Sequence record: NZ_CP090684.1
DNA length: 64,000 nt
DNA from: a plasmid
Direction: 5' to 3' (one strand)
Shown: one piece after another, positions 3,083 to 29,305 of the stretch
How the letters are laid out: the number at the start of each line of letters is the position of its first letter
Position numbering within the stretch: the first letter of the stretch is position 1
Position numbers and translations under genes: made by a program
The notes under the pieces: model-generated
The model's database searches: none
Told to the model about the DNA's origin: nothing
The model's input: the letters and a program-made list of their open reading frames with translations, nothing else

Positions 3083-3172
3083 TCCCTCGCTGACAGGTTC
3101 ACCGCAGTTGCGGTGAGGTTCGTCCTATGCCGGACGTGGAATCCCTATGGGATTTCGCATTGGGGTTAGAAC

Positions 3173-4465: not shown

Positions 4466-4476
4466 AGGAGAACGAT

Positions 4477-9209: not shown

Positions 9210-9556
9210 AGAAGCTCATCGTTGTATCTGCCGCACTCGCAGCCGCTTTCGTCACGCCCGCATTTGCCGGCAACGACATGGCTGGCATGGACATGTCGAC
9301 CAAAGCTTCCGCGATGAAGGCGTCGTCGAACAACGCACTCACCGACGCGGAGGTCAAGAAGGTCGACACGGCGACCGGCATGGTCACGTTGAAGCACGGC
9401 GCGCTCGAAAACGTCGGCATGCCGCCGATGACGATGGCGTTCAAAGCGAAGGATGCCGCGATGGTCAAGCAGATTAAGGAAGGCGACAAGGTCAAGGTGC
9501 GCGTTGAAGAAGTCAACGGCACCCTGACCATCGTGAAACTGGAAAAGCGTTCCTGA
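9206..9556 (+). CDS. cusF: Periplasmic Cu(I)/Ag(I) chaperone CusF
   Basis: [21 protein letters not shown] signal peptide. OB-fold CusF motif ...[13 protein letters not shown]... Start ATG overlaps the cusA stop (ATGA). Confidence 0.85.
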
Positions 9557-9631
9557 CGAAAACATTGGTGCCCGGCGCGCAGGCGTCTGTCCGCGCGCCG
9601 GTACGCCAAAGGGGCGGCCGAGGAGACCAAC

Positions 9632-11503
9632 ATGCGCACGACATCCTCTAACACGTATCGGTACGTCTATCGAACAGCGGACGCGTTGAGTCGCATGCTT
9701 CGCTTCGTCCTTGTGCTGGTGTTCGGACTTGTATCCTTTGCGGCATACGCAGTCAACGAATCCGAATTGCTGGCGCCCGAGCAGGCATTTCCGTTGACCG
9801 TCAGCCTTGCGAGCCATAAGGAGGTCGTGCTCGACTTCAAGACGAAGCCCGGGTATTACCTGTATCGTGACCGATTCAGCTTTGCGGTGAGCGGCGCGCC
9901 GGTAAAACCGGTTGCGATGCCTCCCTCCGAAACCAAGAACGACCCCACGTTCGGTGTCGTGCAGGTCTATCACCAGCCGGTCCGAATTCTTCTTCCGCTG
10001 TCCGCCGCCGTCACGTCAAGCGCCACGCTGACGGTGACATCCCAGGGATGTGCAGACGTTGGTGTCTGTTATCCGCCTCAGACTCGCCGCTTTCGGATCG
10101 CTGCGGACGGTGGGGTGACGCCTGCCGCGCTCGTGGGGAGCGCGAAGGGGGCGGACTTCCCTGTCGCAGAGAAAGACCGGCAGGCCACCGTACTCGGTCT
10201 ACCGCTGCGGCCGGCCAATGGTATCGGCATCGCCGAAATGCTTGGCTTCCTGTTGGCGGGTCTGCTGATGGCGGGTACCGTGTGCATGTATCCGCTCATT
10301 CCGATCGTCACGGCGGTCATTGACGGTACTCGCGAGCGGTTGCCGGTATGGCGCGGGTTCTCGCTGTCGTTGGCCTATGTGCAAGGACTGGCGATCACGT
10401 ATGCGGCAGCCGGAACTGTCGCGGCCGTCATCGGCATTCCGCTCGTGGCGCTGACGCAGAAACCCTGGTTGCTGGCCACGTTCGGCATGCTCATGCTCGC
10501 GTTCGCGCTCGGTATGTTCGGCGTGTTCCGATTGCAACTGCCGACGGGTTGGCAGACGCGGTTTGCGGGATGGAGCAAGCGCTTGCCCGGCGGCCGTGTT
10601 GGGCCCGTGTTCGTGATGGGCATGTTGTCCGCGCTGATCGTAGGGCCGTGTTCCACACCGGCGCTGGCCGGCGCACTGCTCTACATCGCAAACAGTCGTG
10701 ACATCTCAGGCGGTGCGCTGGCGCTGTATCTGATGGGTATCGGAATCGGCATTCCATTGTTGCTCGTCGGTACGTTCGGAACGCGCTTGCTGCCCAAGTC
10801 GGGACACTGGATGGTCGCCGTCCAGAACACGCTGGGGGTCATGCTGTTGGCCGCCGCGCTGTGGTTCGTTTATTCGCTGCTGCCCGCGTGGCTGCTGATG
10901 TCGCTGATCGCGTTGCTGCTCACCGCTTGCGGGACGATGCTGCGGGCGATCGACCCGTTACCGGCGGATGCTACGGGCATCGCGCGAGTCGGCAAAGCGC
11001 TCGGTGTGTTGCTGCTGGTCGCTGGTATTGCCGAGTTTGTTGGCGTCGCATCGGGCAACTTCGACATTTTGACGCCGCTGGGCGGATTGACTCGGACATC
11101 GACGTCGGCGGGCGGCGGCACAAGTGCGGCAACGCAATTCGACACGATAACCTCGAACGCGAAGCTGGACGAGGCGCTCAAGGCAGCACGAGGTCAACCT
11201 GTCATGGTGGACTTCTACGCGGACTGGTGCATCACCTGCAAGGAACTCGAACGCTTCACGTTCACGGATGCGCGCGTGATGAACGAGTTCACGCATTGGA
11301 AGTTGCTGCGCATCGACGTGACGAAGAACACCGAGGCCGACACGGCCATGTTGCGGCGGTTCGGTCTGTTCGGCCCTCCGGCGCTGATCTTCTTCGACAA
11401 GACTGGTCGGCCACAGCCCGATGCGCAATTGATCGGATTTATTGGCGCGGACACGTTCCTGGCCCATCTGAAGCGGTTGCAGTCGGGCGATGTGGCGCAA
11501 TAG
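9632..11503 (+). CDS. dsbD: Thiol:disulfide interchange protein DsbD (protein-disulfide reductase)
   Basis: N-terminal periplasmic domain, central multi-TM domain, and C-terminal thioredoxin domain (WCITCKELE). True start may be an internal Met (MLRFVLVL). Confidence 0.85.
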   Translation: MRTTSSNTYRYVYRTADALSRMLRFVLVLVFGLVSFAAYAVNESELLAPEQAFPLTVSLASHKEVVLDFKTKPGYYLYRDRFSFAVSGAPVKPVAMPPSETKNDPTFGVVQVYHQPVRILLPLSAAVTSSATLTVTSQGCADVGVCYPPQTRRFRIAADGGVTPAALVGSAKGADFPVAEKDRQATVLGLPLRPANGIGIAEMLGFLLAGLLMAGTVCMYPLIPIVTAVIDGTRERLPVWRGFSLSLAYVQGLAITYAAAGTVAAVIGIPLVALTQKPWLLATFGMLMLAFALGMFGVFRLQLPTGWQTRFAGWSKRLPGGRVGPVFVMGMLSALIVGPCSTPALAGALLYIANSRDISGGALALYLMGIGIGIPLLLVGTFGTRLLPKSGHWMVAVQNTLGVMLLAAALWFVYSLLPAWLLMSLIALLLTACGTMLRAIDPLPADATGIARVGKALGVLLLVAGIAEFVGVASGNFDILTPLGGLTRTSTSAGGGTSAATQFDTITSNAKLDEALKAARGQPVMVDFYADWCITCKELERFTFTDARVMNEFTHWKLLRIDVTKNTEADTAMLRRFGLFGPPALIFFDKTGRPQPDAQLIGFIGADTFLAHLKRLQSGDVAQ

Positions 11504-11554
11504 CGCAGCTGCCGGCGGTCGCAGCGGGACTGATCGGCGCCTATACTGGAAATC

Positions 11555-11917
11555 ATGAAATTCTGGGTCAAACTCGTTGCCTGCTTTCTGATTGCGTGGT
11601 TGCCAATGCTCGGTTACCCCGCACAGGCGGCGTTGTGTCCAGAAATGTCGTCGATGCCAGCGGTACAGCATCACATGAAGGCAGCAAGTGCGATCGAAGC
11701 GACCGGATGCACGTCCGGTACGAAGCCTCTCGGTACCAGCGATCGTCCATCTGCGTGCCACGCGGGCATGGGAAGTGCCGTGTGCGGGATGCTGGCTATA
11801 CCGATGTCGCATCGCGTCGGCATCGTCGTTTCTACGGCCGACTATCGGGCCATCACGCCGTTCCTCGCCGAGCAGTTCATTCCTGAGCTGCCAGCACCAC
11901 CCCCGCGTTCGTTGTAA
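11555..11917 (+). CDS. Hypothetical secreted Cys/His/Met-containing protein (possible metal-binding, DUF2946-like)
   Basis: Signal peptide MKFWVKLVACFLIAWLPMLGYPAQA. Motifs CPEMSSMP, ACHAGMGSAVCGM. Confidence 0.45.
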   Translation: MKFWVKLVACFLIAWLPMLGYPAQAALCPEMSSMPAVQHHMKAASAIEATGCTSGTKPLGTSDRPSACHAGMGSAVCGMLAIPMSHRVGIVVSTADYRAITPFLAEQFIPELPAPPPRSL

Positions 11918-12036
11918 CTCTCATCCGTCGACGCTTGCCCAGCGGTTCCGTACCGCGGCCCGAGTTCGCTCGTGGCCCGCGTATTCATCCGGGAAGCGTC
12001 GCATGTTCGATTCTTTGAATGCAGATGGAGATATAC

Positions 12037-12324
12037 ATGAACGCAAGTCATGCACGAATGGCGGTCCTTTCCACACTATTGGTTGCAGCGAGCGCAGTGA
12101 GCTTCGCTGCCACTGGTTCAGCGTCCGGCACGTCGGCGCAAGATCGTGAGCACGGTCACGGCTCGATGATGATGGGCGGCATGATGGGTGGTTGCCCGAT
12201 GATGGGGGGGAGCGCCGGACTGGACTCGAAGACCGCAATGCGAATGCACGCCGAGATGATGCGCGCGATGAGCGACATCATGATGAAGTATTCCGACCAG
12301 GCGGGTGCGGCACCGTCAAAGTGA
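12037..12324 (+). CDS. Met-rich periplasmic copper-binding protein
   Basis: Signal peptide, then GHGSMMMGGMMGGCPMMGGS and MRMHAEMMRAMSDIMM. A Met-rich Cu(I) ligand motif. Confidence 0.55.
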   Translation: MNASHARMAVLSTLLVAASAVSFAATGSASGTSAQDREHGHGSMMMGGMMGGCPMMGGSAGLDSKTAMRMHAEMMRAMSDIMMKYSDQAGAAPSK

Positions 12325-12376
12325 CGCAAGCCAGACCACATGACTCGCATTGAATTCCGCTTGACAAGGACTTCAC

Positions 12377-12604
12377 ATGAAATGCAACTGGAAAACCATG
12401 GTGGCTGTTGGGTCCGCACTGGTCGCCGTCATCGCCCTCGGGTACTGGGCATTTCCTCCGCTCAGAGGCCCGCTTGCAACGCTCGCCGTTATCGCCAGTG
12501 GGTTTATCTGCCCGCTATCGATGATTTTCATGATGCGCGGCATGCAATCTCACGCTGACGGTTCCGGTGTGGACACTCGCCTGACGGACAAAGCCGAACA
12601 CTGA
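12377..12604 (+). CDS. DUF2933-like small membrane protein
   Basis: 75 aa with two TM helices. Commonly linked to cop/cus clusters. Confidence 0.5.
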   Translation: MKCNWKTMVAVGSALVAVIALGYWAFPPLRGPLATLAVIASGFICPLSMIFMMRGMQSHADGSGVDTRLTDKAEH

Positions 12605-12681
12605 GCCCGCCGACTTACGTCGGTACATCGGGCCGGAGCGATGGCATTTGCCACCGCTCCGGTCCGCTTCACGGAGCGTAT

Positions 12682-12843
12682 ATGTTCACTGGGAAACCAA
12701 TCGTCAATTTCATCATTGGCCTACTCGCGGCCATCGGCCTGCTAGCGGTGCTGGGCACGGCCGCGATGTGGGGGATGCATAGCGGGATGATGCACGGCAT
12801 GCTGTCGTGTGGAAGCACGATGTATCCGCGTTCCGGAACCTGA
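12682..12843 (+). CDS. Unannotated 53-aa membrane peptide with Met/His-rich tail
   Basis: MFTGKPIVNFIIGLLAAIGLLAVLGTAAMWGMHSGMMHGMLSCGSTMYPRSGT. One TM helix plus an MxxxH/M-rich tail. Below the ORF-track size cutoff. Confidence 0.35.
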   Translation: MFTGKPIVNFIIGLLAAIGLLAVLGTAAMWGMHSGMMHGMLSCGSTMYPRSGT

Positions 12844-12865
12844 GCGGGAGTTTGGGAGATTGAAA

Positions 12866-13423
12866 ATGAAACGATACAAACGACATCAGTCTGGCAGCGC
12901 CGCCAACGAGCGCTCCGGTCGTGTCGTCAAGGTGAAGTTGAATCTGCTGTCTCTGCTTGCCCTGATTCTCGCGGTATCGACGGCGTTGGTTTGGGGGCCT
13001 TCACTTGTGCATTGGGCCTTTGGTCCAAAAAGCGCTGCGGTCACGCTGGAGAACACGGTCCAGCAGGTACCCGGCTGGCGAGTCGGAATGCTGCGCCCAG
13101 ATGGACTGCGCATCATTTCATCGGGCGTATCGGATGCCTCGCATGTACTGAACCCGGTGCAGTTTCCCGACATTGCTGTGCGGCACGCGTACTGGGTCGC
13201 GACCCAGATCCCCGCGACGCTCAACAAGCTCTACTGCTGGTGCGGATGCGAGAACCGCGGCGAGCATCGTTCGAACCTTCAGTGCTTCGAGGACAAGATG
13301 GCGGTGTCGTGCCCGGTTTGCCAAGGCACAGCCGAAATCGCTTACCAGATGACGCAAGCTGGTGTCCGGGACGCAGCGAAGATTCAAGCGGCAGTCGATG
13401 CAAAGTGGGCGCCGAAGGGATAG
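12866..13423 (+). CDS. PCYCGC-motif domain protein (metal-resistance-associated)
   Basis: Starts MKRYKRHQ. N-terminal TM helix. LYCWCGCE and CPVC motifs. Confidence 0.6.
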   Translation: MKRYKRHQSGSAANERSGRVVKVKLNLLSLLALILAVSTALVWGPSLVHWAFGPKSAAVTLENTVQQVPGWRVGMLRPDGLRIISSGVSDASHVLNPVQFPDIAVRHAYWVATQIPATLNKLYCWCGCENRGEHRSNLQCFEDKMAVSCPVCQGTAEIAYQMTQAGVRDAAKIQAAVDAKWAPKG

Positions 13424-13456
13424 CCGCCGGGCGTTTCAATTTCGAAGCAGGAGGAT

Positions 13457-13768
13457 GTGATGGAACTGAAATGCGTTGTCGCAGTGCTGCGGCCCGAGGT
13501 GCTCACCGCGCTCGAGCAGCGATTGGGTGCGTTGCACATCCATGGAATGACGGTGACCAAGGCAAAGGGATTCGGCGCGCATCCCAACTTCTTTGGCAAC
13601 GACTGGACAACGGAACACATCAGGATCGAAGTCTTTACGGTCGCAGAGAGCGTCGACGCGCTGGTCGAGGAAATTACGACGGTCGCGAACGAACAATCGG
13701 GCGGCGATGGCGTCGTGGCCGTCGTACCGGTAGAACGGTTTCTCCGAGTGCGGTCGGCGACTCCGTAA
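13457..13768 (+). CDS. P-II (GlnB-like) family protein embedded in metal-resistance cluster
   Basis: About 103 aa with the ferredoxin-like P-II fold signature (KCVVAVLRPE...HGMTVTKAKGFG...). Confidence 0.7.
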   Translation: MMELKCVVAVLRPEVLTALEQRLGALHIHGMTVTKAKGFGAHPNFFGNDWTTEHIRIEVFTVAESVDALVEEITTVANEQSGGDGVVAVVPVERFLRVRSATP

Positions 13769-13834
13769 CACCGGTTTGGCGATTGTCGGTTACCGGGAAA
13801 ATGCAATGAGATCAAAGGGATCCCAGCATACGAC

Positions 13835-14272
13835 TTAAACGTCCCTCACAGGGGGCAGAACATGGATCTTTCCAGAAGCTACCGCCTGCAGCGTTGCAAT
13901 CTCCTGACGCAGTGTTTCATTAATCGACGCCAGCGTCGCGACATCAGCCAGTGCAGCGTCTCGCTCCGCGCGGACGGTCTTCAGCTGTTCTCTTACCTTC
14001 TTGACCTCCGCAACCGTGGCGTCGCGCTGCTGCCGAATGCCGCGGCCGACTTGAGTGCGGATCTCTTCGGCGATGTCGGGGTACGTATTGTGAATGAGGC
14101 CGGCGCTTACGCCAGCCTCCGCCGCGACGGAGGAGATGCTCAATTTCAGTCCCCTCGTCTTGACCCGGAGGATCGCCAGCTGTAGCGCTTCGCGCGTCTT
14201 CCCTCTGCTACGGCGCCGGGGCGCCGACCCGGGCCGCGTATCGTCGGGCGAGGTGCCTGCACGGCTGCTCAT
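13835..14272 (-). CDS. Small HTH protein (TetR-like N-terminal helix-turn-helix plus coiled coil), TnpC-position gene of recombinase module
   Basis: HTH at LKLSISSVAAEAGVSAGLIHNTY. Overlaps the upstream recombinase stop by 4 nt. Confidence 0.55.
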   Translation of the reverse strand: MSSRAGTSPDDTRPGSAPRRRSRGKTREALQLAILRVKTRGLKLSISSVAAEAGVSAGLIHNTYPDIAEEIRTQVGRGIRQQRDATVAEVKKVREQLKTVRAERDAALADVATLASINETLRQEIATLQAVASGKIHVLPPVRDV

Positions 14273-18127: not shown

Positions 18128-19363
18128 TCAGTGTCGAGGATCGACTGTGGATGCATGCGGCGCCGTGGCCAATGCTTTGCCAACCCCGTAGAGCCGGTCA
18201 AACTCGTCCATCATCGCGAGCGCCTCTGCGCCCAGCAGCCGCTCTATCTGCTGCAAATACACCATGGTGGTCTGGACACTCGCGTGGCCGAGGCGGTCGC
18301 GGACGTACATGAGCGGCTCCATCGGTATCTCGGGACGGCTGCGAAGCAGCAGCAGGGTATGAATCGCGTAGCTGTGGCGCAGCATGAGCGGGCGCACCCG
18401 GAAGCCCACCGTGTTGCTGAGATCGGTGTAGACCTTCACCGCGGATTCCTTGCTGTAGCGTTGCCCGTGAATCGTCAGGATCAGTTCCTTGCGGTCTGCC
18501 GCGTCGGCAAGACCGTTGCGCTCGAATGTCGTATATGCGTACATGTCCTCCATCAGGCTGTATGGCACGTGCACAACGCGGGACTTGTTGAACTTGATCT
18601 CCATGTCCCGTGGGTCGAGGCGCACGTCGATAAAGGTGCCTGGCTTCCAAGCCTTTTGGGTCCGTGGATCAACCACGTACGACAGCGGGAAGGTACGTGC
18701 CTCGACTGAGCGCAAACCCACCCGCGCCATCAGGTCGAACAGCAGCCGCTGCGCTGCAGAGCGAATCGATTGCCGCACGATCTTCAGTTGATCGGCTGTC
18801 AGGAACGCAGGTTCCTTGTTCCACTCGTTGAGCAGCACTGCCGGACGGCTCGACCTCTTCCGACCGCCGGTGATATGAGTCAGGTCATGCTCAATGCCGT
18901 ACACTGCGACGTCGGAACAGGTGAAGGGCAAGCGGTCGATCCGCCCGCGTTCATGTGCCCACCGGTACATTGCCGTGACCAATTCCAACCGGGCGTTGAT
19001 GGTTGCGGGGTCCAGCTTGAGGTCTTGGGCCTGCCAATCGCGGTAAACACTGACGACGCTCTGCCCAACCGACATGAATGGATCGTCCCAACACCATTCG
19101 TTCGCTTGTAGAAATCGAGCGAAATCCCATAGCCGGCGACCGTACGCCTCCCACGTCTTTTGATCAAGCGCCTTTCCGCTCTCAAGCAATCGGTACAGCA
19201 GGTAGTCATGGAACGGTTGCGCCGGCTCCATCGAATCGTCGAGGATCAAGGGGAATCCCGGCCGCGGGCGTCCGGCGAAGACAAACTCATCAGTGGCGCG
19301 TACGTACCTCACGCGCTGGCCTCGCGCAACATCTTCGCTGCTTGCTTGAATGGCACGCGCCAT
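18128..19363 (-). CDS. Tyrosine recombinase (first of trio, 411 aa)
   Basis: Box I VGLRSVEARTF. Box II LRHSYAIHTLL...LGHASVQTTMVYLQ. Confidence 0.85.
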   Translation of the reverse strand: MARAIQASSEDVARGQRVRYVRATDEFVFAGRPRPGFPLILDDSMEPAQPFHDYLLYRLLESGKALDQKTWEAYGRRLWDFARFLQANEWCWDDPFMSVGQSVVSVYRDWQAQDLKLDPATINARLELVTAMYRWAHERGRIDRLPFTCSDVAVYGIEHDLTHITGGRKRSSRPAVLLNEWNKEPAFLTADQLKIVRQSIRSAAQRLLFDLMARVGLRSVEARTFPLSYVVDPRTQKAWKPGTFIDVRLDPRDMEIKFNKSRVVHVPYSLMEDMYAYTTFERNGLADAADRKELILTIHGQRYSKESAVKVYTDLSNTVGFRVRPLMLRHSYAIHTLLLLRSRPEIPMEPLMYVRDRLGHASVQTTMVYLQQIERLLGAEALAMMDEFDRLYGVGKALATAPHASTVDPRH

Positions 19364-19735
19364 TGGCGCATCACGAGGTCGTCGGCACCGTCAGCAATCG
19401 CGCGCGCCGCGAGGCAATGCAGCCGCCCTATTTCCGGATCATCCATAGGTTGCCAAATCTCCCCCGAATTCCATCCCGCTACTCGACTTCAAGAAATTGA
19501 ATAGCAGTACACAGGACGATGTCTGTCAACCCATTTATTACTAACAAAACGAGGTATTCGTACCGATGCATCGTGCCGATCAAATCGTCGAACGTCGACG
19601 CATGGCTGGCGCCGGATCCGTCTCGCCGCGCGCAGCTGCGCGAGATCCTCGCCGATCGCGAACGGCCCTACTACGAGCACCAACTGGCGGCGTAATTCGG
19701 GTAGGGATTGGAGTCGGCATGGGGAATGGCATATA

Positions 19736-19751
19736 CTGTATAAACATACAG
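19736..19751 (+). promoter_or_regulatory. LexA (SOS) box CTGTATAAACATACAG
   Basis: Perfect CTGT-N8-ACAG palindrome 18 nt upstream of the imuA ATG. Confidence 0.75.
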
Positions 19752-19769
19752 TGCCAGAACCCCACGACC

Positions 19770-20486
19770 ATGCAAGCCGCTCTTGCCCATCCTGAAACCA
19801 TCCATCCCGCGCTCTGGCGTGCCAGCCAGCTGGCGCGCTCGAGCTCGCGCGGCGTCGACACGGGGCACGCTGAGCTGACCGCCGAGCTACCCGGCGGCGG
19901 CTGGCCCGCGGGCGCGCTGGTCGATTTGCTGACGCAGCAGGCCGGCATCGGCGAGCTCCGGCTACTCGCGCCTGTACTGGCGCGCTCGAGCGGCCGACCG
20001 ATCATGCTGATCCAGCCGCTGCACGGGCTGCAGCCGCTGGCGCTGTCGTATTGGGGTGTCGATTCGTCCAGCTTCGTCCTGCTGCCTGCCCCGCGCACCG
20101 CCGACGCACTGTGGGCCGCCGAGCAGGTGCTGCGCGCCGGCACGTGCGCGGCTGTCCTGCTGTGGCAGTCAAACGTGCGCGCGGACGCGCTGCGGCGTCT
20201 GAACCTGGCCGCGCAAACCGGATCCGCACTGTTTTTCCTGTTCCGGCCGGCGGCCGCCGCACGCGACGCGTCGCCGGCGCCATTGCGGCTCGCGCTGGCC
20301 CCCAAGCGCGACGGCATCGAGATCACGTTCGTGAAGCGCCGCGGACCCGCGCGCGATACGCCGTTGTTCGTCCCGTTGTCCCCTTCGCCGATTTTGTTGA
20401 ATCGCCATGCAAGTCTGGATCGGCGTGCATCTGCCGCACCTCAACCTCGAAACGTTCCGGCCACGCTCGCCGGCGCCATCGCCTGA
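19770..20486 (+). CDS. imuA: ImuA, SOS-inducible RecA/SulA-like component of mutagenesis cassette
   Basis: Start at MQAALAHPETIHPALWRASQLA. The ORF-track extension to 19566 runs across the LexA box and is spurious. Confidence 0.75.
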   Translation: MQAALAHPETIHPALWRASQLARSSSRGVDTGHAELTAELPGGGWPAGALVDLLTQQAGIGELRLLAPVLARSSGRPIMLIQPLHGLQPLALSYWGVDSSSFVLLPAPRTADALWAAEQVLRAGTCAAVLLWQSNVRADALRRLNLAAQTGSALFFLFRPAAAARDASPAPLRLALAPKRDGIEITFVKRRGPARDTPLFVPLSPSPILLNRHASLDRRASAAPQPRNVPATLAGAIA

Positions 20487-21885
20487 CGATGCGCGCGGTC
20501 TCGTCGTGCTCGAGAGCGGCCGTGTCGTGGCGCTGGACCGTGCCGCGCGCGCGCTCGGCATCGTCGTCGGCATGCGGCGCGCCGGCGTGCTGTCGCTCGC
20601 GCCCGACGCACAGATCCGCGAGCGCGACGTCGTGCGAGAACGCGAACTCGTGCTCGGCGTCGCGTACGCGCTGCTGCAGTTCACGCCGAACGTCGTCGAC
20701 GCTGACGAAGCAGTGGTACTGCTCGACGTGACGGCCAGCCTGCGCCTTTTCCATGGCATTCGCGCGCTGCGCCGGCGCGTGCGCGACGTCGTCGCGTCGT
20801 TCGGCGTCTCCGCGGCAATCTCCGTCGCGTCGACAGGCCCGGCCGCATGGATGGTCGCGCGCGGGCTGCGCGGCGGCCTCGCGCTGTCTGCCCGGTCATT
20901 GCGCCGCGCGCTCGCGCGCGTGCCGCTCGTGGTCGCCCCTGATGCGCGGCGGTACGCGACGTGGTTCGACGAGCTCGGCTGCGAAACGCTGGCGGACCTG
21001 CAGCGCCTGCCCCGCGCCGGGCTCAAGAAGCGTTGCGGCACGCAGCTGCTCGACTGGCTCGACCAGGTGGCCGGCACTGCGCCGGCGGCCTATGACTGGC
21101 TCGACATGCCGCCGTCGTTCGACACGCGCGTCGAGCTGATGGACCGCGTCGAGCACGCCGAGGCGCTGTTGTTTGTCGCGCGCCGGCTGATCCTGCAGCT
21201 GACCGGTTGGCTCACGGCGAAGCAGCTGGACGTCGCAGCATTCGCGCTGCTGCTCGAGCACGAGCGCGGACGCGACGCGATTGCGCCGACCGAGATCGAG
21301 ATTTCGCTGGGCGCCCCCACGCGCTTCGAAGAGCACCTGACCCGGCTCGTCAAGGAGCGGCTTGGCCATGTCGAGCTCGCCGGGCCCGTGATCGCCGTGC
21401 GGCTCGTCGCGCGACGCGTGCAGGAAGCGGCCGCGCCGAGCGATTCGTTGTTCCCGGAACCCGGCGGCACGCCGCAGGATCACGCTCGATTGCTGGAACT
21501 GCTCACCGCGCGCCTCGGCGCAGAGAATGTGCTGGTCCCGGCTCCCATAGCCGACTACCGTCCGGAGCCGGCCGCCCGATGGGTGCCGATGCGCGACGCG
21601 CCGAAGGCGGCACCGCTGCCGGCGGATTTGCCGCGCCCCGCCTGGCTGCTCGCCAAGCCGGTGCCGCTGCTCACGCGCCAACACCGGCCGTTCTACGGTA
21701 CACCGCTGCGCATGGTGTCGCCTGGCGAGCGTATCGAAGGCGGATGGCAGGACGGGCAGACTGTGACGCGCGACTACTTCGTTGCCGAGGACGACAACGG
21801 CATCTGCTACTGGATCTTCAAGGAGCGGCCGACGGCCAGCGACGAAAGCGACTCGCGCTACTTTCTGCACGGCCTGTTCGGTTGA
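20407..21885 (+). CDS. imuB: ImuB, Y-family polymerase-like protein
   Basis: N-terminus MQVWIGVHLPHLNLE matches the ImuB consensus. Lies between imuA and dnaE2. Overlaps the imuA 3' end. Confidence 0.8.
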   Translation: MQVWIGVHLPHLNLETFRPRSPAPSPDDARGLVVLESGRVVALDRAARALGIVVGMRRAGVLSLAPDAQIRERDVVRERELVLGVAYALLQFTPNVVDADEAVVLLDVTASLRLFHGIRALRRRVRDVVASFGVSAAISVASTGPAAWMVARGLRGGLALSARSLRRALARVPLVVAPDARRYATWFDELGCETLADLQRLPRAGLKKRCGTQLLDWLDQVAGTAPAAYDWLDMPPSFDTRVELMDRVEHAEALLFVARRLILQLTGWLTAKQLDVAAFALLLEHERGRDAIAPTEIEISLGAPTRFEEHLTRLVKERLGHVELAGPVIAVRLVARRVQEAAAPSDSLFPEPGGTPQDHARLLELLTARLGAENVLVPAPIADYRPEPAARWVPMRDAPKAAPLPADLPRPAWLLAKPVPLLTRQHRPFYGTPLRMVSPGERIEGGWQDGQTVTRDYFVAEDDNGICYWIFKERPTASDESDSRYFLHGLFG

Positions 21886-21891
21886 TTCGCG

Positions 21892-24800
21892 ATGAGCGCT
21901 GCGAGCTACGGCGCCCTGCCCGCCTATGCGGAGCTGCAGGTCGCCAGCGACTTCTCGTTTCTGCACGGCGCGTCGCGCGCCGAGGAATACGTGGCGCGCG
22001 CGGCACAGCTCGGCTACAGCGCGATCGCGATCACCGATGAGTGCTCGCTCGCCGGCGTCGTGCGCGCGCACGTCGAAGCGAAGGCAGCCGGCCTGCCTCT
22101 GATCATCGGCTCGCACTTCCGGCTGACGGCCGCCGACGGCGCGCCGGCGATCGCGTTCAGCGCGCTCGCGATGAATCGCGACGGCTACGGCAACCTCTGC
22201 GAACTGGTGTCGCTCGGCCGTATGCGCGGCAAGAAAGGCAGCTACCGGTTGGCGCCGCGCGATCTCGAGCAGCCGGACGCGCCATTCACGCATCTGCGCG
22301 GCTTGCCCGACTGCATTGCGATCCTGTCGCCCGACTTCCCGGCCAATGAGCAGCGGCTCGACGCGCAGGTCGAATGGTTCGCGCGCGTGTTCGGCGATCG
22401 CGCATGGGTCGCGCTCACGCTGCATGCGCGTGCGATGGACGATATCCACCGCGGTGTCGTTGAACGCGTCGCCGCGCGCCACGGCGTGCCGGTGGTCGCA
22501 ACCAGCTGGCCGCTGATGCATGTGCGATCGCGCAAACCGCTGCAGGACGTTCTGACGTCAATCCGGCTGGGGCGGCCGGTGTCCGAGTGCGGATACGAGC
22601 TCGCGCCGAATGCAGAGCGGCATTTGCGATCGCGCTTGCGGCTTGCCAACCTCTACCCGGCCGGCGCGCTCGAGGAGACCGTGCGGGTCGCGCGGCGCTG
22701 CACGTTCTCACTCGACGACCTGAAGTACGAATATCCGGACGAGGTGGTTCCAGCCGGCTACGACGTCGCGACCTACCTGCGCGAACAGACGTATATCGGT
22801 GCGCAGCGGCGCTTTCCGGCCGGCATTCCGGTCGACGTGCAGGCGCAGATCGAACACGAGCTGCAGTTGATCGCGGAACTGAACTACGAGGCGTATTTCC
22901 TGACCGTCTACGACATCGTGCAATTCGCGCGTCAGAACGGCATCTTGTGCCAGGGCCGCGGGTCGGCGGCGAACTCCGCCGTCTGCTACTGCCTCGGCAT
23001 GACGGAGGTCGATCCCTCCCGTCAGTCGATGCTGTTCGAGCGGTTCATGAGCAAGGAGCGCAACGAGCCGCCGGACATCGACGTCGACTTCGAGCATCAG
23101 CGTCGCGAAGAGGTGATGCAGTACATCTACCGCAAGTACGGCCGCGATCGCGCGGCGCTGACCGCGGCCGTCAGCACGTACCGACCGCGCAGCGCATTGC
23201 GCGAGGCCGGCAAAGCGCTCGGCGTGGATCCGGCGATCGTCGATCGGGTCGCCAAAAGTCACCACTGGTTCGACTCGCGCGCGGATCTGCTCCAGCGTTT
23301 CGCCGAAGCCGGTCTCGATCCCGAGGCGCCGCTCAATCAGCAGTGGGCCGCGTTCGCCGCTCAGCTGCTCGGCTACCCGCGCCATCTGTCGCAGCACTCG
23401 GGTGGCTTCGTGATCAGCCGCGGCAAGCTCACGCGACTCGTGCCGGTCGAGAATGCCGCGATGGAAGATCGCACGATCATCCAGTGGGACAAGGACGATA
23501 TCGAAGCGCTCGGCATCCTGAAAATCGACGTGCTCGCGCTCGGCATGCTGTCGATGGTGCGCCGCGCGCTCGACATGATCTCGGAGAAGCGCGGCGAAAC
23601 GTTTGAGCTGCAGGACATACCGGCCGAAGACAAAGCGACCTACGACATGCTGTGCGACGGCGACAGCATGGGCGTATTCCAGGTCGAGTCGCGCGCGCAG
23701 ATGTCGATGCTGCCGCGCCTACGGCCGCAATGCTTCTACGATCTCGTGATCGAGGTCGCGATCGTTCGACCCGGCCCCGTGCAGGGCGGCATGGTGCATC
23801 CATATCTCCGCCGCCGGCAGGGACTTGAGCCCGTCACGTTCCCTTCAGACGGCATGGAAAAGGCGCTGAAGCGCACGCTCGGCGTGCCGATCTTCCAGGA
23901 GCAGGTGATGCAGGTCGCCATGCTTGCGGCCGGCTTCTCCGCCGGCGAGGCCGATCAGCTGCGACGTGCGATGGCGGCATGGAAACGCAAGGGCGGCCTC
24001 GAGCCATACCACGATCGGCTCGTGAGCGGCATGCTCGAGCGCGGCTACGATCGCGAATTCGCCGAGGCGATCTTCGCGCAGATCAAGGGCTTCGGCGAGT
24101 ACGGGTTTCCGGAGAGCCATGCGGCCAGCTTCGCGTTGCTCGTCTACTCGAGCGCGTGGTTGCGCCGGCACGAGCCGGCCGTGTTTCTGGCCTCGTTGCT
24201 CAACAGTCAGCCGATGGGCTTCTATACACCATCGCAGCTGCTGCAGGACGCGCGACGCCGTGGCGTTGAAGTATTACCTGTCGACGTGAACGTGAGCACG
24301 TGGGATTCAGTCATCGAGGGGCCGACGACCTCGGCGCCGGTGCGTCTCGGATTCTCACTGCTGCGCGGCATGCGCGCGGACGTCGCCGGCCGCATCGAGC
24401 TCGCGCGCGCGGTGCGGCCGTTCGTCGACGTCGCGGATCTCGCTCGACGGGCGCAGCTCGATCGGCACGACCTGCAGGTACTCGCCCGCGCGAACGCGCT
24501 GCGCTCGCTCGCCGGCGGCAATCGTCGCGCCGCGCTGTGGCTGGCGGCCGCGGCGATCCCCGATCGGGATCTGTTGCGCGGCACTGAGCGTGACGACGCC
24601 GTGCCGGCGCTGCCGCAGGCGTCGGAAGGCAAGGAGATTGTGACCGACTATCGCGCGATGGGCTTCACGCTCGGCCGGCACCCACTGGCGCTGCTGCGCG
24701 ATCGTCTGACGCTCGATCGTTTGCAGTCGGCCGAGCAGCTGGCAACGTTACGCAGCGGCCAGCTCGCGCGCGCATGCGGACTGGTCACCGTGCGACAACG

Positions 24801-25041
24801 GCCGGGCACGGCCAACGGCGTGCTGTTCATGACGCTCGAGGACGAGACGGGCCAGGTGAACGTGATCCTGTGGCCCGGTCTGCTGGAGAAGTTTCGCAAG
24901 GAGGCGCTAGGCGCGGCGCTCCTCGCGGTCTACGGTGTATGGCAGGCCGAGGGGAAGGTGCGGCACTTGATCGCGAGCAAGCTCGTCGACCGGAGCGAAT
25001 TGCTCGGCTCGCTGCCGACGACGGCAAGGGAGTTTTGTTGA
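21892..25041 (+). CDS. dnaE2: Error-prone DNA polymerase DnaE2 (ImuC)
   Basis: 1049 aa. PHP domain (LQVASDFSFLHGAS), Pol III alpha core, and OB fold. Confidence 0.95.
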   Translation: MSAASYGALPAYAELQVASDFSFLHGASRAEEYVARAAQLGYSAIAITDECSLAGVVRAHVEAKAAGLPLIIGSHFRLTAADGAPAIAFSALAMNRDGYGNLCELVSLGRMRGKKGSYRLAPRDLEQPDAPFTHLRGLPDCIAILSPDFPANEQRLDAQVEWFARVFGDRAWVALTLHARAMDDIHRGVVERVAARHGVPVVATSWPLMHVRSRKPLQDVLTSIRLGRPVSECGYELAPNAERHLRSRLRLANLYPAGALEETVRVARRCTFSLDDLKYEYPDEVVPAGYDVATYLREQTYIGAQRRFPAGIPVDVQAQIEHELQLIAELNYEAYFLTVYDIVQFARQNGILCQGRGSAANSAVCYCLGMTEVDPSRQSMLFERFMSKERNEPPDIDVDFEHQRREEVMQYIYRKYGRDRAALTAAVSTYRPRSALREAGKALGVDPAIVDRVAKSHHWFDSRADLLQRFAEAGLDPEAPLNQQWAAFAAQLLGYPRHLSQHSGGFVISRGKLTRLVPVENAAMEDRTIIQWDKDDIEALGILKIDVLALGMLSMVRRALDMISEKRGETFELQDIPAEDKATYDMLCDGDSMGVFQVESRAQMSMLPRLRPQCFYDLVIEVAIVRPGPVQGGMVHPYLRRRQGLEPVTFPSDGMEKALKRTLGVPIFQEQVMQVAMLAAGFSAGEADQLRRAMAAWKRKGGLEPYHDRLVSGMLERGYDREFAEAIFAQIKGFGEYGFPESHAASFALLVYSSAWLRRHEPAVFLASLLNSQPMGFYTPSQLLQDARRRGVEVLPVDVNVSTWDSVIEGPTTSAPVRLGFSLLRGMRADVAGRIELARAVRPFVDVADLARRAQLDRHDLQVLARANALRSLAGGNRRAALWLAAAAIPDRDLLRGTERDDAVPALPQASEGKEIVTDYRAMGFTLGRHPLALLRDRLTLDRLQSAEQLATLRSGQLARACGLVTVRQRPGTANGVLFMTLEDETGQVNVILWPGLLEKFRKEALGAALLAVYGVWQAEGKVRHLIASKLVDRSELLGSLPTTAREFC

Positions 25042-25078
25042 TGGTGCTCTAGCAAGCCAGAGCGCCCGACGCGAAGCT

Positions 25079-25469: not shown

Positions 25470-26594
25470 CTATGTCCCAGCAATCAGTTCAAGCTGGCCA
25501 ACGTCTCGCGCGTCCGAATCCCAGCGGCGCAGCGCGTAGTACCACTTTGACAGCTTCTTGGCCAGCAACTCACGATGAATGCTCGCTGTGAGTTGCTCGT
25601 CCTGCCGTCGGTTGTCACGGTCGCACCGAAAGAAGACGACCATTGCCTTGTCGTCGTCGAGCGCTATGTGAAATTCCGGCAGTTTGTCCGCTTTCATGGC
25701 CGCAATGAGATCTCTGCGGAAATACTTAAGTGCTTGAGCGGACCCCGACTTGCCGTAGAGCTTTTCAAGGCCGATTTTGAACCACAGCTTGTCACCACAG
25801 TGCTTCTTGGCCAAATCGTAAAGGCGACGCTCAAGACCTTGCCCCAAATCGAAGTAACCCGGATGTAGGGTTAGGATGCGCCGACTCAGCAACAAATCGT
25901 AGGTCCAACTCGACAATACTAGCTCGACCTCCAGCGCCCCTTTCCGATTGGCGGTATACGTGATCACCGAATATTCCTGGATCAACCCGTATCCGCGTAA
26001 GGTCTCGTGGATCCCGGCTTCATTGGCACCCGGGCGCGTCGTATCGAAATTTGTTTCGATGATGGTGCCTTTCAAGCGTCGGCAGCTATCAACGATGCGC
26101 TCATACGAAGCGCCGCCCGTACTGCGTCGGGTGTATTTGAGAAAGTCACGGACCTTGAATCGGATTCGGCGTGAAACCGGGATATCGGAGTCGGCCGCCT
26201 TGCAAATCAGTGTAGCGGCGTAGACGAGCAGATCCTTATCGAAGATATTTGCCGCCCCCACCCCGCTTGGGATGATTCTGACGATTTGTTCGCCGTTGCG
26301 GTAGACGCGAACCCGCGTGTCTTTGCCCTTTTGCAGTGAGAAAAGGGGGAACTCGAGAGAATGAAGGTCCTCGCGGGGCTTCCAGGACAAGTCAAGTTGC
26401 TCGCCGAAAAACAGTTCGAGCTGCTCTGGATCGAACTCGCCCTCGTCCAGTCGAACGACATCATCGCCGTCGGCTGAGTTTTCCGATTGCTCAGCGCCTT
26501 GGCTGCGTGCCAATGGTGGTCGTGCGCCCATCGGCAACTGCGCCGCTCCTGCCCCCCTCAGTGAGTAGCTGTTCTCGGAATTGACTGTACTCAT
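25470..26594 (-). CDS. repA: Plasmid-type replication initiator protein (RepA/RPA family-like)
   Basis: 374 aa. Positioned after the korA-korB-incC-like genes. Resembles 'replication initiator protein A' of Proteobacterial plasmids and islands. Confidence 0.6.
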   Translation of the reverse strand: MSTVNSENSYSLRGAGAAQLPMGARPPLARSQGAEQSENSADGDDVVRLDEGEFDPEQLELFFGEQLDLSWKPREDLHSLEFPLFSLQKGKDTRVRVYRNGEQIVRIIPSGVGAANIFDKDLLVYAATLICKAADSDIPVSRRIRFKVRDFLKYTRRSTGGASYERIVDSCRRLKGTIIETNFDTTRPGANEAGIHETLRGYGLIQEYSVITYTANRKGALEVELVLSSWTYDLLLSRRILTLHPGYFDLGQGLERRLYDLAKKHCGDKLWFKIGLEKLYGKSGSAQALKYFRRDLIAAMKADKLPEFHIALDDDKAMVVFFRCDRDNRRQDEQLTASIHRELLAKKLSKWYYALRRWDSDARDVGQLELIAGT

Positions 26595-26616
26595 TCTCTC
26601 CTGCTTTCCCCGTATT

Positions 26617-27027
26617 TCATTCCAGCTTGCTCGTTTGCGTGCCGAGATGTTTGATCAGGGCAGACACTGCCGACTGGACTTTATTCGTATCTTTCGATCG
26701 TTGTGCCTTCGCAAGGAAGCGCGCGAGCGGTTCGACAAGCGGGCTCGGCACTTCGAATTCCTGCTTTAGCCAGACGATGACCTCCGCACTTCGCAGTTCC
26801 GAGTTCGTCAGGCTCTCGTAGTAGCGCTTCACCAACTGGCTGACGCGTTGTCGAGAAACCCCAAATTCACTCGCAACGTCCGCCGCCGGCCGCCCGTCGA
26901 CGATCACGGCGCGTGCGATATCGCGAGTAGCTTCGTCAAACGGACGTGTCCCGAACTCGCGCGCGTGCTTCCGCATGGCGGAGTCCAATGCTGAAAAATG
27001 CTTCGCTGAAAGGCGGAATGTAGCCAA
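26617..27027 (-). CDS. KorA/TrfB-like HTH transcriptional repressor
   Basis: HTH ADVASEFGVSRQRVSQLVKRY. Located between parB and repA. Confidence 0.5.
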   Translation of the reverse strand: MATFRLSAKHFSALDSAMRKHAREFGTRPFDEATRDIARAVIVDGRPAADVASEFGVSRQRVSQLVKRYYESLTNSELRSAEVIVWLKQEFEVPSPLVEPLARFLAKAQRSKDTNKVQSAVSALIKHLGTQTSKLE

Positions 27028-27089
27028 GATTGCTTTCCGAATAGGTTGACAAGCAACGAACTGGCGCCTGCCCGCCTCGGTCCGTTGCG

Positions 27090-28448
27090 TTACAGCGACC
27101 AGTCGTTCGGCGCCAGAGGATGAATTTCGCGGTCGGTATCGTAACCGAAGTCATCTGGCAGAACGCCGGGTCGCCGGCACGGATGCAATCTGTTCAGCAG
27201 CTCGAGCGGCCCACTCGAATTTATTTCATCATTGAACCTGTTTATTATTTTACCCGCTGTTTCAGTTGGCATGCCAGCAAGCGCCGAGGCAGCCAGGTCC
27301 ACAAAGCAGACCCACAACCTCCATTCGATGTCCTCCGCACGCACGCCAGCCGCCGAAAGGTCGGCGTGCAACCGGCGAACTCTCTCGACGGATCCGGTGC
27401 CGATTTCGTAGATTTCCTCTACGCGCCAAACCGACGTCTCACTCGGATCGGCGGCGGCAGCGTGCAAACGCTTCGCTTTGGGTACTTGCCGCAGCCCCTC
27501 CGGAGATGCCGCCGGGCTCGGAGCTAGGCGAGCGTCCGCCATATTCGGCACATCGGCATCATGTTCTGCGCCGTGGGCCGCCTGACCCTCGAATACAGGA
27601 CCAGGTGACGGTTGTTGGCCATCGTCAATGGACTGCGATGCAGTAGAACCCGGTGCCTCGGCCGGCGCGCTCGAGCGAGCCATAGCAGCTGCCTCGCCGA
27701 CCGCATCTTTCACCGACGGAGCGGCGACCTGCTTCAGCAGGTTCAGTCGCGCATCGAGCGTCAAGCGTCCGAACTTCTTTCCTGCCCGCATGTCCGTTGC
27801 GATTTCGTGCGCAGTCGCGGCACTGCAAGCCTCGATGTCGGCCATTTTGTTGGCCGCTTCGACGTCGTCGAACATGTCCTCATCGAACAAGGCTCGGGTC
27901 GTGGGACCATAACGAAGGAACCGCAAGTGTTTCGAGACCCATGACGCGCTGCGCTCCTTGCCGCTCGGCGCCGCCCAGATGCTGGCTGCTTGCTCTCGCC
28001 CGTACAACTCGACGTCTGTCGCAAGGCCGATAGCCGTCTCTCTCACCGAGAGTTGCTTTCGATCGATGTTCTCGGACACCTGATACATCCGGATTGCCAA
28101 GTCTGACGTCCCGGCGGGGAAAATCTTTGCCTGTATCTCCGGCCAGTCGTTCAAAAGGCTGCCTCGGATGCGCCGCTCGCCGGCGATCAGCTCATACTCG
28201 TCGCTGTCCGAAATTGCTCGCACCAATATCGGCGTGTGCACGTGACCGATCGCCCGAAGCCGCTCGGCGAACGCCTGCACATCGGCGAAATCGTCGCGAA
28301 CTTGAGGTTTGATCCGAACTTTATTGACCGCGATGAACCTCGTCACCGCCCCTGTGGCCTGCTCGATTTCAGCCACACGCGATGCCGCGCTTGCCGCTCG
28401 AGTCAGTGCCGAAATAGAAGCAAACTTCCCGCTTGTCGCCTGCTGCAT
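27090..28448 (-). CDS. parB: ParB/KorB-like partition protein (ParB N-terminal nuclease-like domain)
   Basis: ParB box ELIAGERRIRGS. Downstream of the ParA ATPase. Confidence 0.7.
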   Translation of the reverse strand: MQQATSGKFASISALTRAASAASRVAEIEQATGAVTRFIAVNKVRIKPQVRDDFADVQAFAERLRAIGHVHTPILVRAISDSDEYELIAGERRIRGSLLNDWPEIQAKIFPAGTSDLAIRMYQVSENIDRKQLSVRETAIGLATDVELYGREQAASIWAAPSGKERSASWVSKHLRFLRYGPTTRALFDEDMFDDVEAANKMADIEACSAATAHEIATDMRAGKKFGRLTLDARLNLLKQVAAPSVKDAVGEAAAMARSSAPAEAPGSTASQSIDDGQQPSPGPVFEGQAAHGAEHDADVPNMADARLAPSPAASPEGLRQVPKAKRLHAAAADPSETSVWRVEEIYEIGTGSVERVRRLHADLSAAGVRAEDIEWRLWVCFVDLAASALAGMPTETAGKIINRFNDEINSSGPLELLNRLHPCRRPGVLPDDFGYDTDREIHPLAPNDWSL

Positions 28449-28462
28449 TCAACGACCCCTCT

Positions 28463-29305
28463 TTATGCGTTGCTCACCGAAAGGCCGATGCGCTCCAAAA
28501 TGGAGTCGCACACGGCGTGCATTTCTTTCGCAGCAAGCCGATCACTTTCGCCCCTCCGACGCGCCCACACCGGATGAAAACTTGTCAGGCGGACCCCCGC
28601 ACGATCGCGCAATTCGTGTTCGAGTACTGCGTCGTCGAACGCATTCCGAACAGTCGTCCTCATCGATTGGTCATCGGCGCGTCGCAGATTGACCTTGTTG
28701 AGCAGAACGCCCACCAGCTCGAGATCCGGATTCCATTCGCGCTTGACGAGCTCAAGCTTCTCCGACGTACTGAGAAGGCCCGACATACTGTCAATTCCGA
28801 GATCAGTCGGAATCACGACGTAGTCGGCGCAGATCATCCCGCCCAACACGAGGTTGCTCATCGTTGGCGCGGTGTCGATCACGCACAGATCAAATTGGTC
28901 CGCCAGTGCATCCAAGGATTCCCGCGCCTTCGCCGCTGATTCGAGCGGCCAAGTCATGACGTCCTCGAGCTCCGGCGTCGCGCCGATCATTGCCGCCCCG
29001 TCGACAATTCGCATTGGATTGACGTCCCGTTTGCCCTGGTAGAGCAAGTGCGCACTCGAATTTTCTGTCACATCCGGTAGGCCCAAGTGCTCCCATGTAA
29101 GTGCCGCGCCCATCACCGACGGACCCGACTTCGCGGTCAGCTTTCGGTACAGCATCGACCTTGTCAGATTGCCTTGCGGATCCAGATCCACCACCAACAC
29201 GCGGATCCCTCGCTCGATTGCCGTGTAGACCAGATGCCGAACAATAGTCGTCTTGCCGGTGCCGCCCTTCCCATTCACGATGCTTATCTTCTTCATGGCC
29301 ACCAT
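28463..29305 (-). CDS. parA: ParA/IncC partition ATPase
   Basis: Deviant Walker A KGGTGKTT. Confidence 0.9.
   Translation of the reverse strand: MVAMKKISIVNGKGGTGKTTIVRHLVYTAIERGIRVLVVDLDPQGNLTRSMLYRKLTAKSGPSVMGAALTWEHLGLPDVTENSSAHLLYQGKRDVNPMRIVDGAAMIGATPELEDVMTWPLESAAKARESLDALADQFDLCVIDTAPTMSNLVLGGMICADYVVIPTDLGIDSMSGLLSTSEKLELVKREWNPDLELVGVLLNKVNLRRADDQSMRTTVRNAFDDAVLEHELRDRAGVRLTSFHPVWARRRGESDRLAAKEMHAVCDSILERIGLSVSNA

Follow-up and report, generated by a model that had tools for sequence, protein, structure and literature searches.

A plasmid-borne imuA-imuB-dnaE2 cassette of Burkholderia adjoins a metal-resistance integrative element that probably inserted into the neighbouring SRAP gene

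Cassettes of imuA, imuB and dnaE2 (imuC) belong to the core LexA regulon of the Betaproteobacteria, with Burkholderia multivorans among the species analysed (PMC3323433). On the symbiotic plasmid pRalta of Cupriavidus taiwanensis, the imuA2B2C2 cassette has a LexA box of the CTGT-N8-ACAG type at its 5' side, is LexA-dependent and hypermutagenic, and Cupriavidus plasmid cassettes are phylogenetically near those of Burkholderia (Remigi et al. 2014, PMC4151985). Multigene recombinase operons are known from genomic islands with three integrases (GInts, ginABCD), in which GinA and GinB are catalytic and GinC, the third protein and next to GinD, is non-catalytic (PMC10214605, PMC5385486). They are also known from SEs (strand-biased circularizing integrative elements), for which the published pattern is that attL keeps the middle 6 bp of the target, whereas attR receives the 6 bp that the circular form brings along. 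SEs are further described as ending in imperfect inverted repeats (13-19 bp) that would flank a 6-bp spacer in the circular joint, as having the RHRY catalytic residues in IntA and IntB and not in Tfp, and as circularizing without an empty donor site; tmexCD-toprJ units have been treated as SEs (preprint 10.1101/2022.09.22.508988). Here we analysed a 64,000-nucleotide stretch of the plasmid record NZ_CP090684.1 (the window), in which an imuA-imuB-dnaE2 cassette stands back to back with a recombinase operon. In our analysis two unrelated things very probably abut at about position 19563, namely a plasmid SOS operon (19696-25041) and a metal-resistance SE inserted in the gene of an SOS response-associated peptidase (SRAP). 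The coordinates of all features are collected in Table 1.

The junction became visible in plasmids that carry the cassette and lack the recombinases, which match the window only from a sharp edge at 19562 onward. In the empty-site plasmids NZ_CP090750.1 (L001) and NZ_CP090706.1 (L006), an H-NS gene and an intact SRAP gene of 304 aa (Pfam SRAP, 64 bits) lie before the cassette, and the native plasmid module consists of H-NS, SRAP peptidase and imuA-imuB-dnaE2. Because NZ_CP090706.1 shares the right-hand backbone of the window, has an intact SRAP gene and has no recombinases, it represents the empty site. SRAP residues 262-304, the part retained in the window, were also matched by tblastn at the equivalent locus of B. 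metallica (L009). The 5' half of SRAP is absent from the window, and the far end of the SE therefore lies outside it. In NZ_CP102461.1, the SRAP 5' part (264 aa, ending ...HDRCI and a stop) lies 49,342 bp from the 3' part, with copper, silver, arsenic and Czc-type resistance genes between the two. The uninterrupted attB reads ...GACACGACCGATGCATCGTGCCG..., the proximal junction ...GGTATTCGTAC/CGATGCATCGTGCCG... and the distal junction ...GACACGACCGATGC/ATCTGAATACT... (slashes mark the junctions), and the window-type insertion is bordered by a direct repeat of 11 bp. The 406 bp between intA and imuA (372 bp from intA to the LexA box) are of three origins. The SE left end spans 19364-~19563, what remains of SRAP occupies 19564-19695, and 19696-19769 is the native promoter region of imuA.

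The insertion removes positions 167-197 of the Pfam SRAP profile. The target DNA encodes ...G-H-D-R-C/I-V-P-I..., which we take to be the conserved HDRMP motif holding the catalytic histidine of E. coli YedK, and a conserved motif at the target would explain targeting across SRAP alleles that are only ~78-80% identical. The SE very probably integrated site-specifically in the SRAP gene that natively precedes imuA, truncating SRAP and leaving the imuA promoter untouched. On this reading the adjacency of recombinases and imuABC is a consequence of the target choice of the SE, and reflects neither shared regulation nor a cargo relation.

The ends of the element were compared across plasmids. The distal 498 bp of the SE were found at 100% identity in six plasmids, each time adjoining an SRAP gene, and the SE ends are 100% identical in six plasmids besides the window, carrying four SRAP alleles, always at the same SRAP codon. 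Likewise, the left terminus is identical in the window, L002, L003, L008, L031 and L032 while the adjoining flank differs. Next to the left terminus (GTACGAATAC...), the hexamer in intA orientation, read at five junctions, is GCATCG in the window and NZ_CP102461.1, GCAACG in MBR-1, and ACACCT in IDO3, B. aenigmatica and B. vietnamiensis. Next to the right terminus (...AGTATTCAGAT), the hexamer is GCATCG in all six plasmids. That is, the left hexamer tracks the local SRAP allele and the right hexamer is constant, though the SRAP beyond it differs four ways. This pattern, variable at attL and constant at attR, implies that the SE entered the same codon on at least four separate occasions, and it suggests that the donor was of the type seen in the window, that of B. 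multivorans. The occurrence of 100%-identical copies in four SRAP alleles argues for recent mobility. The termini form inverted repeats, the left reading GTACGAATACCTCGTTTTGTTAG and the reverse complement of the right ATCTGAATACTATTAGCCGTTAG, with GAATAC and GTTAG in register, in a weak match made by eye.

More distant relatives widen this picture. Diverged SEs (86-88% identity) with different cargo occupy the same SRAP position in Burkholderia sp. JP2-270 (L005, with opine-catabolism cargo) and B. metallica (L009). IntA relatives at 71-77% identity, from metagenome-assembled genomes (MAGs) of Burkholderiales, do not lie in SRAP; they are found downstream of FtsX-type permease genes, and target choice therefore differs between clades. 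For an IntA relative at 64% identity the context was uninformative. At two loci, in B. vietnamiensis (L002, 15709-16273) and IDO3 (L008, 5070-5414), the SRAP remnant by the SE is followed by a decayed imuA 3' part and imuB fragments that are 75-80% identical to the window, and the LexA box and the 5' half of imuA are deleted. The SRAP remnant of L002 is a different allele from that of the window, with mismatches concentrated in the remnant.

The identity of the recombinase operon was examined by profile comparison with two SE references, pBT2436 and the experimentally active pAQU1, and one GInt reference, E. coli Sakai. By hhalign, each of the four proteins matched its positional SE counterpart at 94.6-97.4%, and cross-matches reached 10.6% at most. 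Pairwise identity to the reference SEs is very low, ~21-28% over partial lengths, and the element therefore represents a distant SE clade. The operon had been described in the sequence-only reading as a recombinase trio; it is in fact a four-gene SE core, in which recombinase catalytic motifs were recognized only in IntB and, with one residue deviating, in IntA. The srap-like gene of this core, annotated 'TetR family' in RefSeq, is distinct from the SRAP peptidase gene. RefSeq starts the intA homologue at the equivalent of 19248.

Like published SEs, the element has the core order intA-tfp-intB-srap at its left end, cargo after srap, imperfect inverted-repeat termini, site-specific insertion and asymmetric hexamers (target-derived at attL, carried-in at attR), with all four proteins as profile matches at 95-97%. 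Unlike published SEs, it resides in a Burkholderia host, whereas a 2023 SE survey found Tfp and Srap homologues in Gammaproteobacteria only. Carriers of this SE clade were all Burkholderia or Caballeronia plasmids, or Burkholderiales MAGs. The window-type SE is also large (49 kb, against an SE median of 15.7 kb), targets an SRAP peptidase gene, has Leu for the His of HxxR in IntA, and has relatives with an extra small ORF upstream of intA. In relatives (L009 2001-2291; L011 7765-8055), a conserved ORF of 96 aa (...GADWELLVDGARFFDTRERKGGGGAVDLVMHLWRVPFKQAVKMLREAGA) overlaps the intA start, gave no Pfam match and may be a fifth SE core gene; the window has it in a form shortened to 45 aa by an internal deletion. 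A promoter-like element 5' of intA is kept in L009 and L010 and fails a consensus scan. Past the left edge of the window the SE continues, and the complete copy in NZ_CP102461.1 (49,342 bp) adds arsenic and Czc-type efflux genes to the cargo. The closest gammaproteobacterial relative found (24-35% identity) has the same four-gene layout and lies on pVb1282-tet, an IncC plasmid of Vibrio parahaemolyticus (L007, 3736-8762), where it directly adjoins a class 1 integron with blaVMB-1 and dfrA1.

The alternative that survives best is that the recombinase module belongs to a GInt or to a recombinase-in-trio (RIT) element and not to an SE, which we consider improbable. The description of GInts by Bardaji et al. 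(2017, PMC5385486) fits in that an island with large adaptive cargo has a recombinase operon of four genes at its 5' end, and in that the insertion is near the 3' end of the target gene with short flanking repeats, here the 11-bp repeat of the window-type insertion. GInts have, moreover, been reported in Betaproteobacteria (PMC5385486, PMC10214605). However, the four proteins follow the SE order of catalytic, non-catalytic, catalytic and small, with the non-catalytic protein second, whereas that of GInts is third. Matches by hhalign to the one GInt reference used were at or below 29%, against 95-97% to the SE proteins, and the constant distal and target-dependent proximal hexamers are the footprint of an SE. 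GInt identity was rejected on these grounds. RIT elements consist of three tyrosine recombinases of ordinary size (~315-400 aa) between long inverted repeats, and were rejected because the operon has four genes, of 411, 633, 650 and 145 aa, two of them with recombinase motifs.

Among described SEs, the tmexCD-toprJ units (int1-int2-hp1-hp2) offer the nearest parallel in having a recombinase module of the same kind and resistance-nodulation-division (RND) efflux cargo, and in that they enter an SOS translesion gene at one conserved position, although its alleles diverge (PMC9769766). They differ in that their target is umuC-like, not SRAP, and that their hosts are Gammaproteobacteria. For the SE copy of pBT2436, the flanking ORFs gave no IMS match, and the umuC parallel is drawn from the literature only. 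Judged by titles and abstracts, none of 14 papers that mention SEs concerned Burkholderia, and in a part of the SE survey supplements we found neither the protein accessions of the element nor Burkholderia. We also found no report in the literature of SRAP genes as integration targets.

A second alternative makes imuABC the cargo of the recombinase element and places the recombinase operon, through the shared divergent region, under the same LexA box. We hold this to be very unlikely. The genes are physically adjacent and divergently oriented, and a palindromic LexA box could in principle act both ways, but the SE boundary falls between the recombinases and the box. Cassette and box stand in the same place in every SE-free locus examined, out of hundreds of cassette-bearing records, and the 100%-identical SE is also found beside SRAP remnants without the box and the imuA 5' end (L002 and L008). 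There is, in addition, no LexA site within 19364-19563, and the box lies ~200 bp upstream of the promoter-like TTGACA of the SE (19524-19529, minus strand), facing away from it. The SE boundary lies between recombinases and box, and the box is placed the same without the SE; control of the recombinases via the box is therefore unlikely, and we give scarcely any credence to SOS control of the operon through the box at 19736-19751. The sequence-only reading had regarded the cassette as cargo of a mobile element rather than as a core chromosomal locus, and had supposed that a 370-bp divergent region could bring the recombinases under SOS control. The former holds in so far as the cassette lies on a conjugative plasmid, and fails in so far as it is not cargo of the SE, given the empty site in NZ_CP090706.1; the latter is contradicted by the composite junction, with the box outside the SE.

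Further LexA-type sites, which that reading had proposed to seek as half-sites near 19364-19500, were not found between 19000 and 20000, even with one mismatch allowed. An ACAG-N8-CTGT sequence at ~19511-19526 has its half-sites in the wrong order for LexA. In the MAG relatives L011 (~7700-7760) and L012, a LexA-like box with one mismatch (CTGGATTAATATACAG; TACTGGATTAATATACAGT) lies within the left end of the SE, upstream of intA and of the small ORF before it, and overlaps a -10-like TAATAT that follows a -35-like TTTACG by 17 nt. At the position aligned to it, the window SE has no LexA-like box. This overlap with the promoter-like region of the SE makes SOS control of some SEs conceivable and counts in that measure for a shared-control view; some SE relatives might be SOS-regulated, which we offer as a lead and not as a finding.

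The cassette itself was identified from its three genes, which are adjacent on the plus strand in the order imuA, imuB, dnaE2, with all ORFs intact and equal in length to RefSeq-annotated homologues. ImuA, in addition to its NF033429 assignment, gives weak SulA-family matches, as expected for a RecA/SulA-like fold. The program-made ORF list had extended imuA to 19566-20486 (306 aa), which is an artefact of an in-frame upstream ATG and takes in both the SRAP remnant and the LexA box; RefSeq imuA homologues start at the equivalent of 19770. As called, imuB overlaps imuA by 80 nt. The Pfam IMS match of ImuB covers profile positions 23-147 only, and its N-terminus (MQVWIGVHLPHLNLETF), by inspection of the sequence, appears to lack the acidic DxD..E motif. 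DnaE2 contains PHP, DNA_pol3_alpha, finger, HHH_6 and OB domains, and scored 620 bits against the replicative DnaE model NF004226, below its cut-off of 1002. The order of box, imuA, imuB and dnaE2 given in the sequence-only reading was borne out by the NF033429, Pfam IMS and NF004225 matches, as was the position of a perfect CTGT-N8-ACAG box (CTGTATAAACATACAG) at 19736-19751, 18 nt before imuA.

This is the sole perfect match to the pattern in the 64-kb window. Bare CTGT-N8-ACAG specifies only eight bases: chance would yield 0.4 matches per window, and 36 of 100 shuffles contained one or more. Such a match therefore proves little alone. The extended palindrome ACTGTA-N6-TACAGT (19735-19752) is unique in the window and was reached in none of the 100 shuffles, even with one mismatch. 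The box lies 18 nt before the imuA ATG at 19770, at -34, and is of the beta/gamma type. We surveyed the 120 nt 5' of imuA at 12 loci from five genera: the window, three B. multivorans plasmids, Burkholderia sp. JP2-270, B. metallica, B. glumae, B. cepacia, Mycetohabitans, Cupriavidus necator, Paraburkholderia phymatum and a Ralstonia megaplasmid. A perfect CTGT-N8-ACAG started 29-43 nt before the imuA ATG in all 12, with ImuA identities to the window of 43-98% and flanks that diverge until they are unalignable. This phylogenetic footprint is the main evidence that the box is likely functional, and the position of the box 5' of imuA is unchanged with or without the SE. That the box is a chance palindrome, with the plasmid cassette constitutive or silent, is hardly credible, despite the 0.4 expected bare matches and the lack of a detected strong sigma-70 promoter, given an extended palindrome never reached in shuffles, a box at an equivalent place in each of the 12 homologous cassettes, from five genera, and the LexA dependence published for a related plasmid cassette.

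Possible imuA promoter hexamers, a -35 TTGGAG (19709-19714) and a -10 TATACT (19732-19737) separated by a 17-nt spacer, would overlap the box in a weak match made by eye. No LexA box was found 5' of the intact SRAP gene in NZ_CP090750.1, and SRAP itself does not appear to be LexA-controlled in these plasmids. An Rfam scan of 13000-27000 returned no RNA family.

These results confirm that the cassette is of the known LexA-repressed SOS mutagenesis type. Host LexA would bind the CTGT-N8-ACAG operator overlapping or abutting the imuA promoter and repress it; upon DNA damage, activated RecA would lead to LexA self-cleavage and to transcription of imuA-imuB-dnaE2, and ImuA, ImuB and DnaE2 would then carry out error-prone lesion bypass and raise mutation rates. 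From knowledge of the family and the pRalta precedent, we infer with high confidence that this copy is LexA-repressed and damage-inducible. Like pRalta imuA2B2C2, it is a plasmid-borne three-gene operon of a betaproteobacterium with a CTGT-N8-ACAG box and the same gene order and families (PMC4151985); the window ImuA is ~60% identical to the Cupriavidus plasmid copies sampled. Unlike pRalta, the window and most Burkholderia plasmid loci examined have an SRAP gene before the cassette and H-NS upstream, though in the window SRAP is interrupted. LexA dependence and mutagenesis, shown for pRalta, are predicted for the window cassette.

Several points weigh against the reading of an SOS operon abutting an inserted SE, or limit its reach. 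Although IntA has the catalytic R and Y, Leu replaces the His of HxxR (motif PLMLRHSY), also in the 77%-identical L013, and the IntA proteins of the Vibrio and reference SEs keep this His; present-day activity of this SE copy is thus not assured. The best hhalign match to GinA-D of 29% concerns a single reference, E. coli Sakai, of a diverse class. Completeness of the SE in this plasmid is presumed by comparison with another copy, to which the 25 kb they have in common are 99.5% identical. A consensus promoter and terminator scan of 19200-19900 returned nothing at its thresholds, which counts against the imuA promoter hexamers, and LexA binding and damage induction of this particular copy are predicted by analogy.

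Table 1. Features of the SE, the SRAP junction, the imuA-imuB-dnaE2 cassette and the adjoining backbone (window coordinates).
Feature	Position	Strand	Basis or remarks
SE cargo in window	1..13834	none	CopD, CusB/CusF-like, RND pump, DsbD, PCYCGC protein (copper/silver); Pfam
srap-like small gene, 145 aa, SE accessory protein	13835..14272	-	hhalign vs SE Srap 94.6%; weak DUF6262 match
intB, large tyrosine recombinase, 650 aa	14269..16221	-	HQCR...KH...Y motifs conserved; hhalign vs SE IntB 97.3%
tfp-like gene, 633 aa	16218..18119	-	No Pfam, NCBIfam or PDB match, no detectable recombinase catalytic domain; hhalign vs SE Tfp 95.8%
intA, tyrosine recombinase, 411 aa as called	18128..19363	-	Pfam Phage_integrase 35 bits; hhalign vs SE IntA 97.4%
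Small ORF, 45 aa, upstream of intA and overlapping it	19308..19445	-	RefSeq homologue WP_009692939.1
Promoter-like element 5' of intA in SE (putative)	19501..19529	-	TTGACA (19529-19524), 17-nt spacer, TGCTAT (19506-19501)
SE left terminus (motif C side)	19550..19563	-	GTACGAATACCTCG; boundary 19561-19563, 2-bp ambiguity
Target-derived hexamer adjoining SE left end	19564..19569	none	CGATGC on +, GCATCG in intA orientation; cross-plasmid junction comparison
3' SRAP remnant, 43 codons, residues 262-304 (RCIVPIKSS...HQLAA) and stop	19564..19695	+	Homology to SRAP of L001 and L006 starts here
Native SRAP-imuA intergenic, imuA promoter region	19696..19769	+	Near-identical to empty-site plasmids L001 and L006
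LexA (SOS) box	19736..19751	none	CTGTATAAACATACAG; extended palindrome ACTGTATAAACATACAGT at 19735-19752
imuA	19770..20486	+	NF033429 ImuA_translesion 217.7 bits, cut-off 150; RefSeq homologues annotated imuA
imuB, Y-family-like polymerase homologue	20407..21885	+	Pfam IMS 36.6 bits; RefSeq homologue equal in length
dnaE2 (imuC), error-prone C-family polymerase	21892..25041	+	NF004225 'error-prone DNA polymerase' 1516 bits, cut-off 939
Backbone module RepA (RPA), KorA/TrfB-like, ParB, ParA	25470..29305	-	Pfam; collinear with NZ_CP090706.1

The window is part of a conjugative plasmid of Burkholderia, and the cassette thus lies on mobile DNA. By megablast against plasmids, it matches B. multivorans-type plasmids, with positions 1-25042 collinear with NZ_CP102461.1 at 99.5% and positions 19562-40592 collinear with NZ_CP090706.1 at ~97%. 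Its right half encodes RPA- and TrfA-type replication initiators, ParA, ParB, a zeta toxin, an ATP-dependent DNA ligase and F-type transfer proteins (TraU, TraK, TrbI-like). The flanks named in the sequence-only reading stand, with recombinase genes at 13835-19363 (minus strand) on one side of the cassette and the RepA, KorA/TrfB-like, ParB and ParA genes at 25470-29305 on the other. There are two replication initiators, of RPA type (25470-26594) and TrfA type (43992-44849), and two ParB-family genes, within 27090-29305 and 42282-43247, a doubling that suggests a multireplicon or cointegrate plasmid. The ligase gene (40086-41234, minus strand) has DNA_ligase_A_M and DNA_ligase_A_C domains, and a gene with the same domains is annotated as a nonhomologous end-joining (NHEJ) ligase in NZ_CP102461.1; with SRAP and imuABC, it gives the backbone several DNA-damage-tolerance functions. 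A 770-aa tyrosine recombinase with DUF3701 (33308-35620, minus strand), followed by a conserved partner ORF (35622-36446), is unrelated to the SE, and the pair was also seen in the empty-site plasmid NZ_CP090706.1 and in JP2-270 (L005).

Relatives of ImuA were found in 371 PLSDB records, including 149 from Burkholderia, 135 Ralstonia megaplasmids, 26 from Paraburkholderia and 22 from Cupriavidus. The cassette occurs in more than 300 Burkholderiaceae plasmid or megaplasmid records, and the element lies beside it in only ~9 of the plasmid records examined. Within the window, imuB and dnaE2 are GC-rich (66-70% GC and GC3 of 0.84-0.86 over 20001-24000, vs 57-63% GC in neighbouring plasmid and SE DNA), which is consistent with a chromosomal, high-GC origin of the cassette. 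SRAP and imuA are also found together in different layouts. On a B. cepacia plasmid (L024), SRAP (669-1424) is divergent from imuA (1601-2317), with a LexA box in the shared 177-bp spacer, and on P. phymatum pBPHY02 (L023, 1601-3321) SRAP is directly downstream of imuA, with imuB and dnaE2 not adjacent.

By itself, the plasmid cassette is a textbook case of SOS mutagenesis genes, useful for annotation and unsurprising; of more use is its context. Modestly new is a betaproteobacterial SE clade that targets SRAP, which extends the reported SE host range beyond the Gammaproteobacteria. A new SE target is the stretch of DNA that codes for the conserved HDR motif in SRAP peptidases, and the SE-type 6-bp footprint is reproduced over four or more independent insertions. 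Natural sequence thereby documents a metal-resistance SE of 49 kb that was recently mobile, and several of the carrier Burkholderia plasmids come from cystic-fibrosis or other clinical isolates. The locus also illustrates that recombinase genes found in a trio next to another system can be misread as a functional unit when the arrangement is really an insertion junction.

SRAP proteins (E. coli YedK, human HMCES) protect abasic sites of single-stranded DNA against error-prone processing. It is conceivable, though unlikely, that SEs as a class preferentially home to plasmid SOS and translesion modules (SRAP here, umuC-like genes for tmexCD-toprJ) and rewire them. In that case SRAP would be cut just after its conserved HDR motif and the LexA-controlled imuABC left intact, so that gaining a metal-resistance island could also raise damage-induced mutagenesis in the host. 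Were homing of SEs to SOS and translesion genes general, the spread of resistance islands would be linked to plasmid mutagenesis toolkits. At the least, this would be the first SE clade described outside the Gammaproteobacteria, with a coding motif as a new target.

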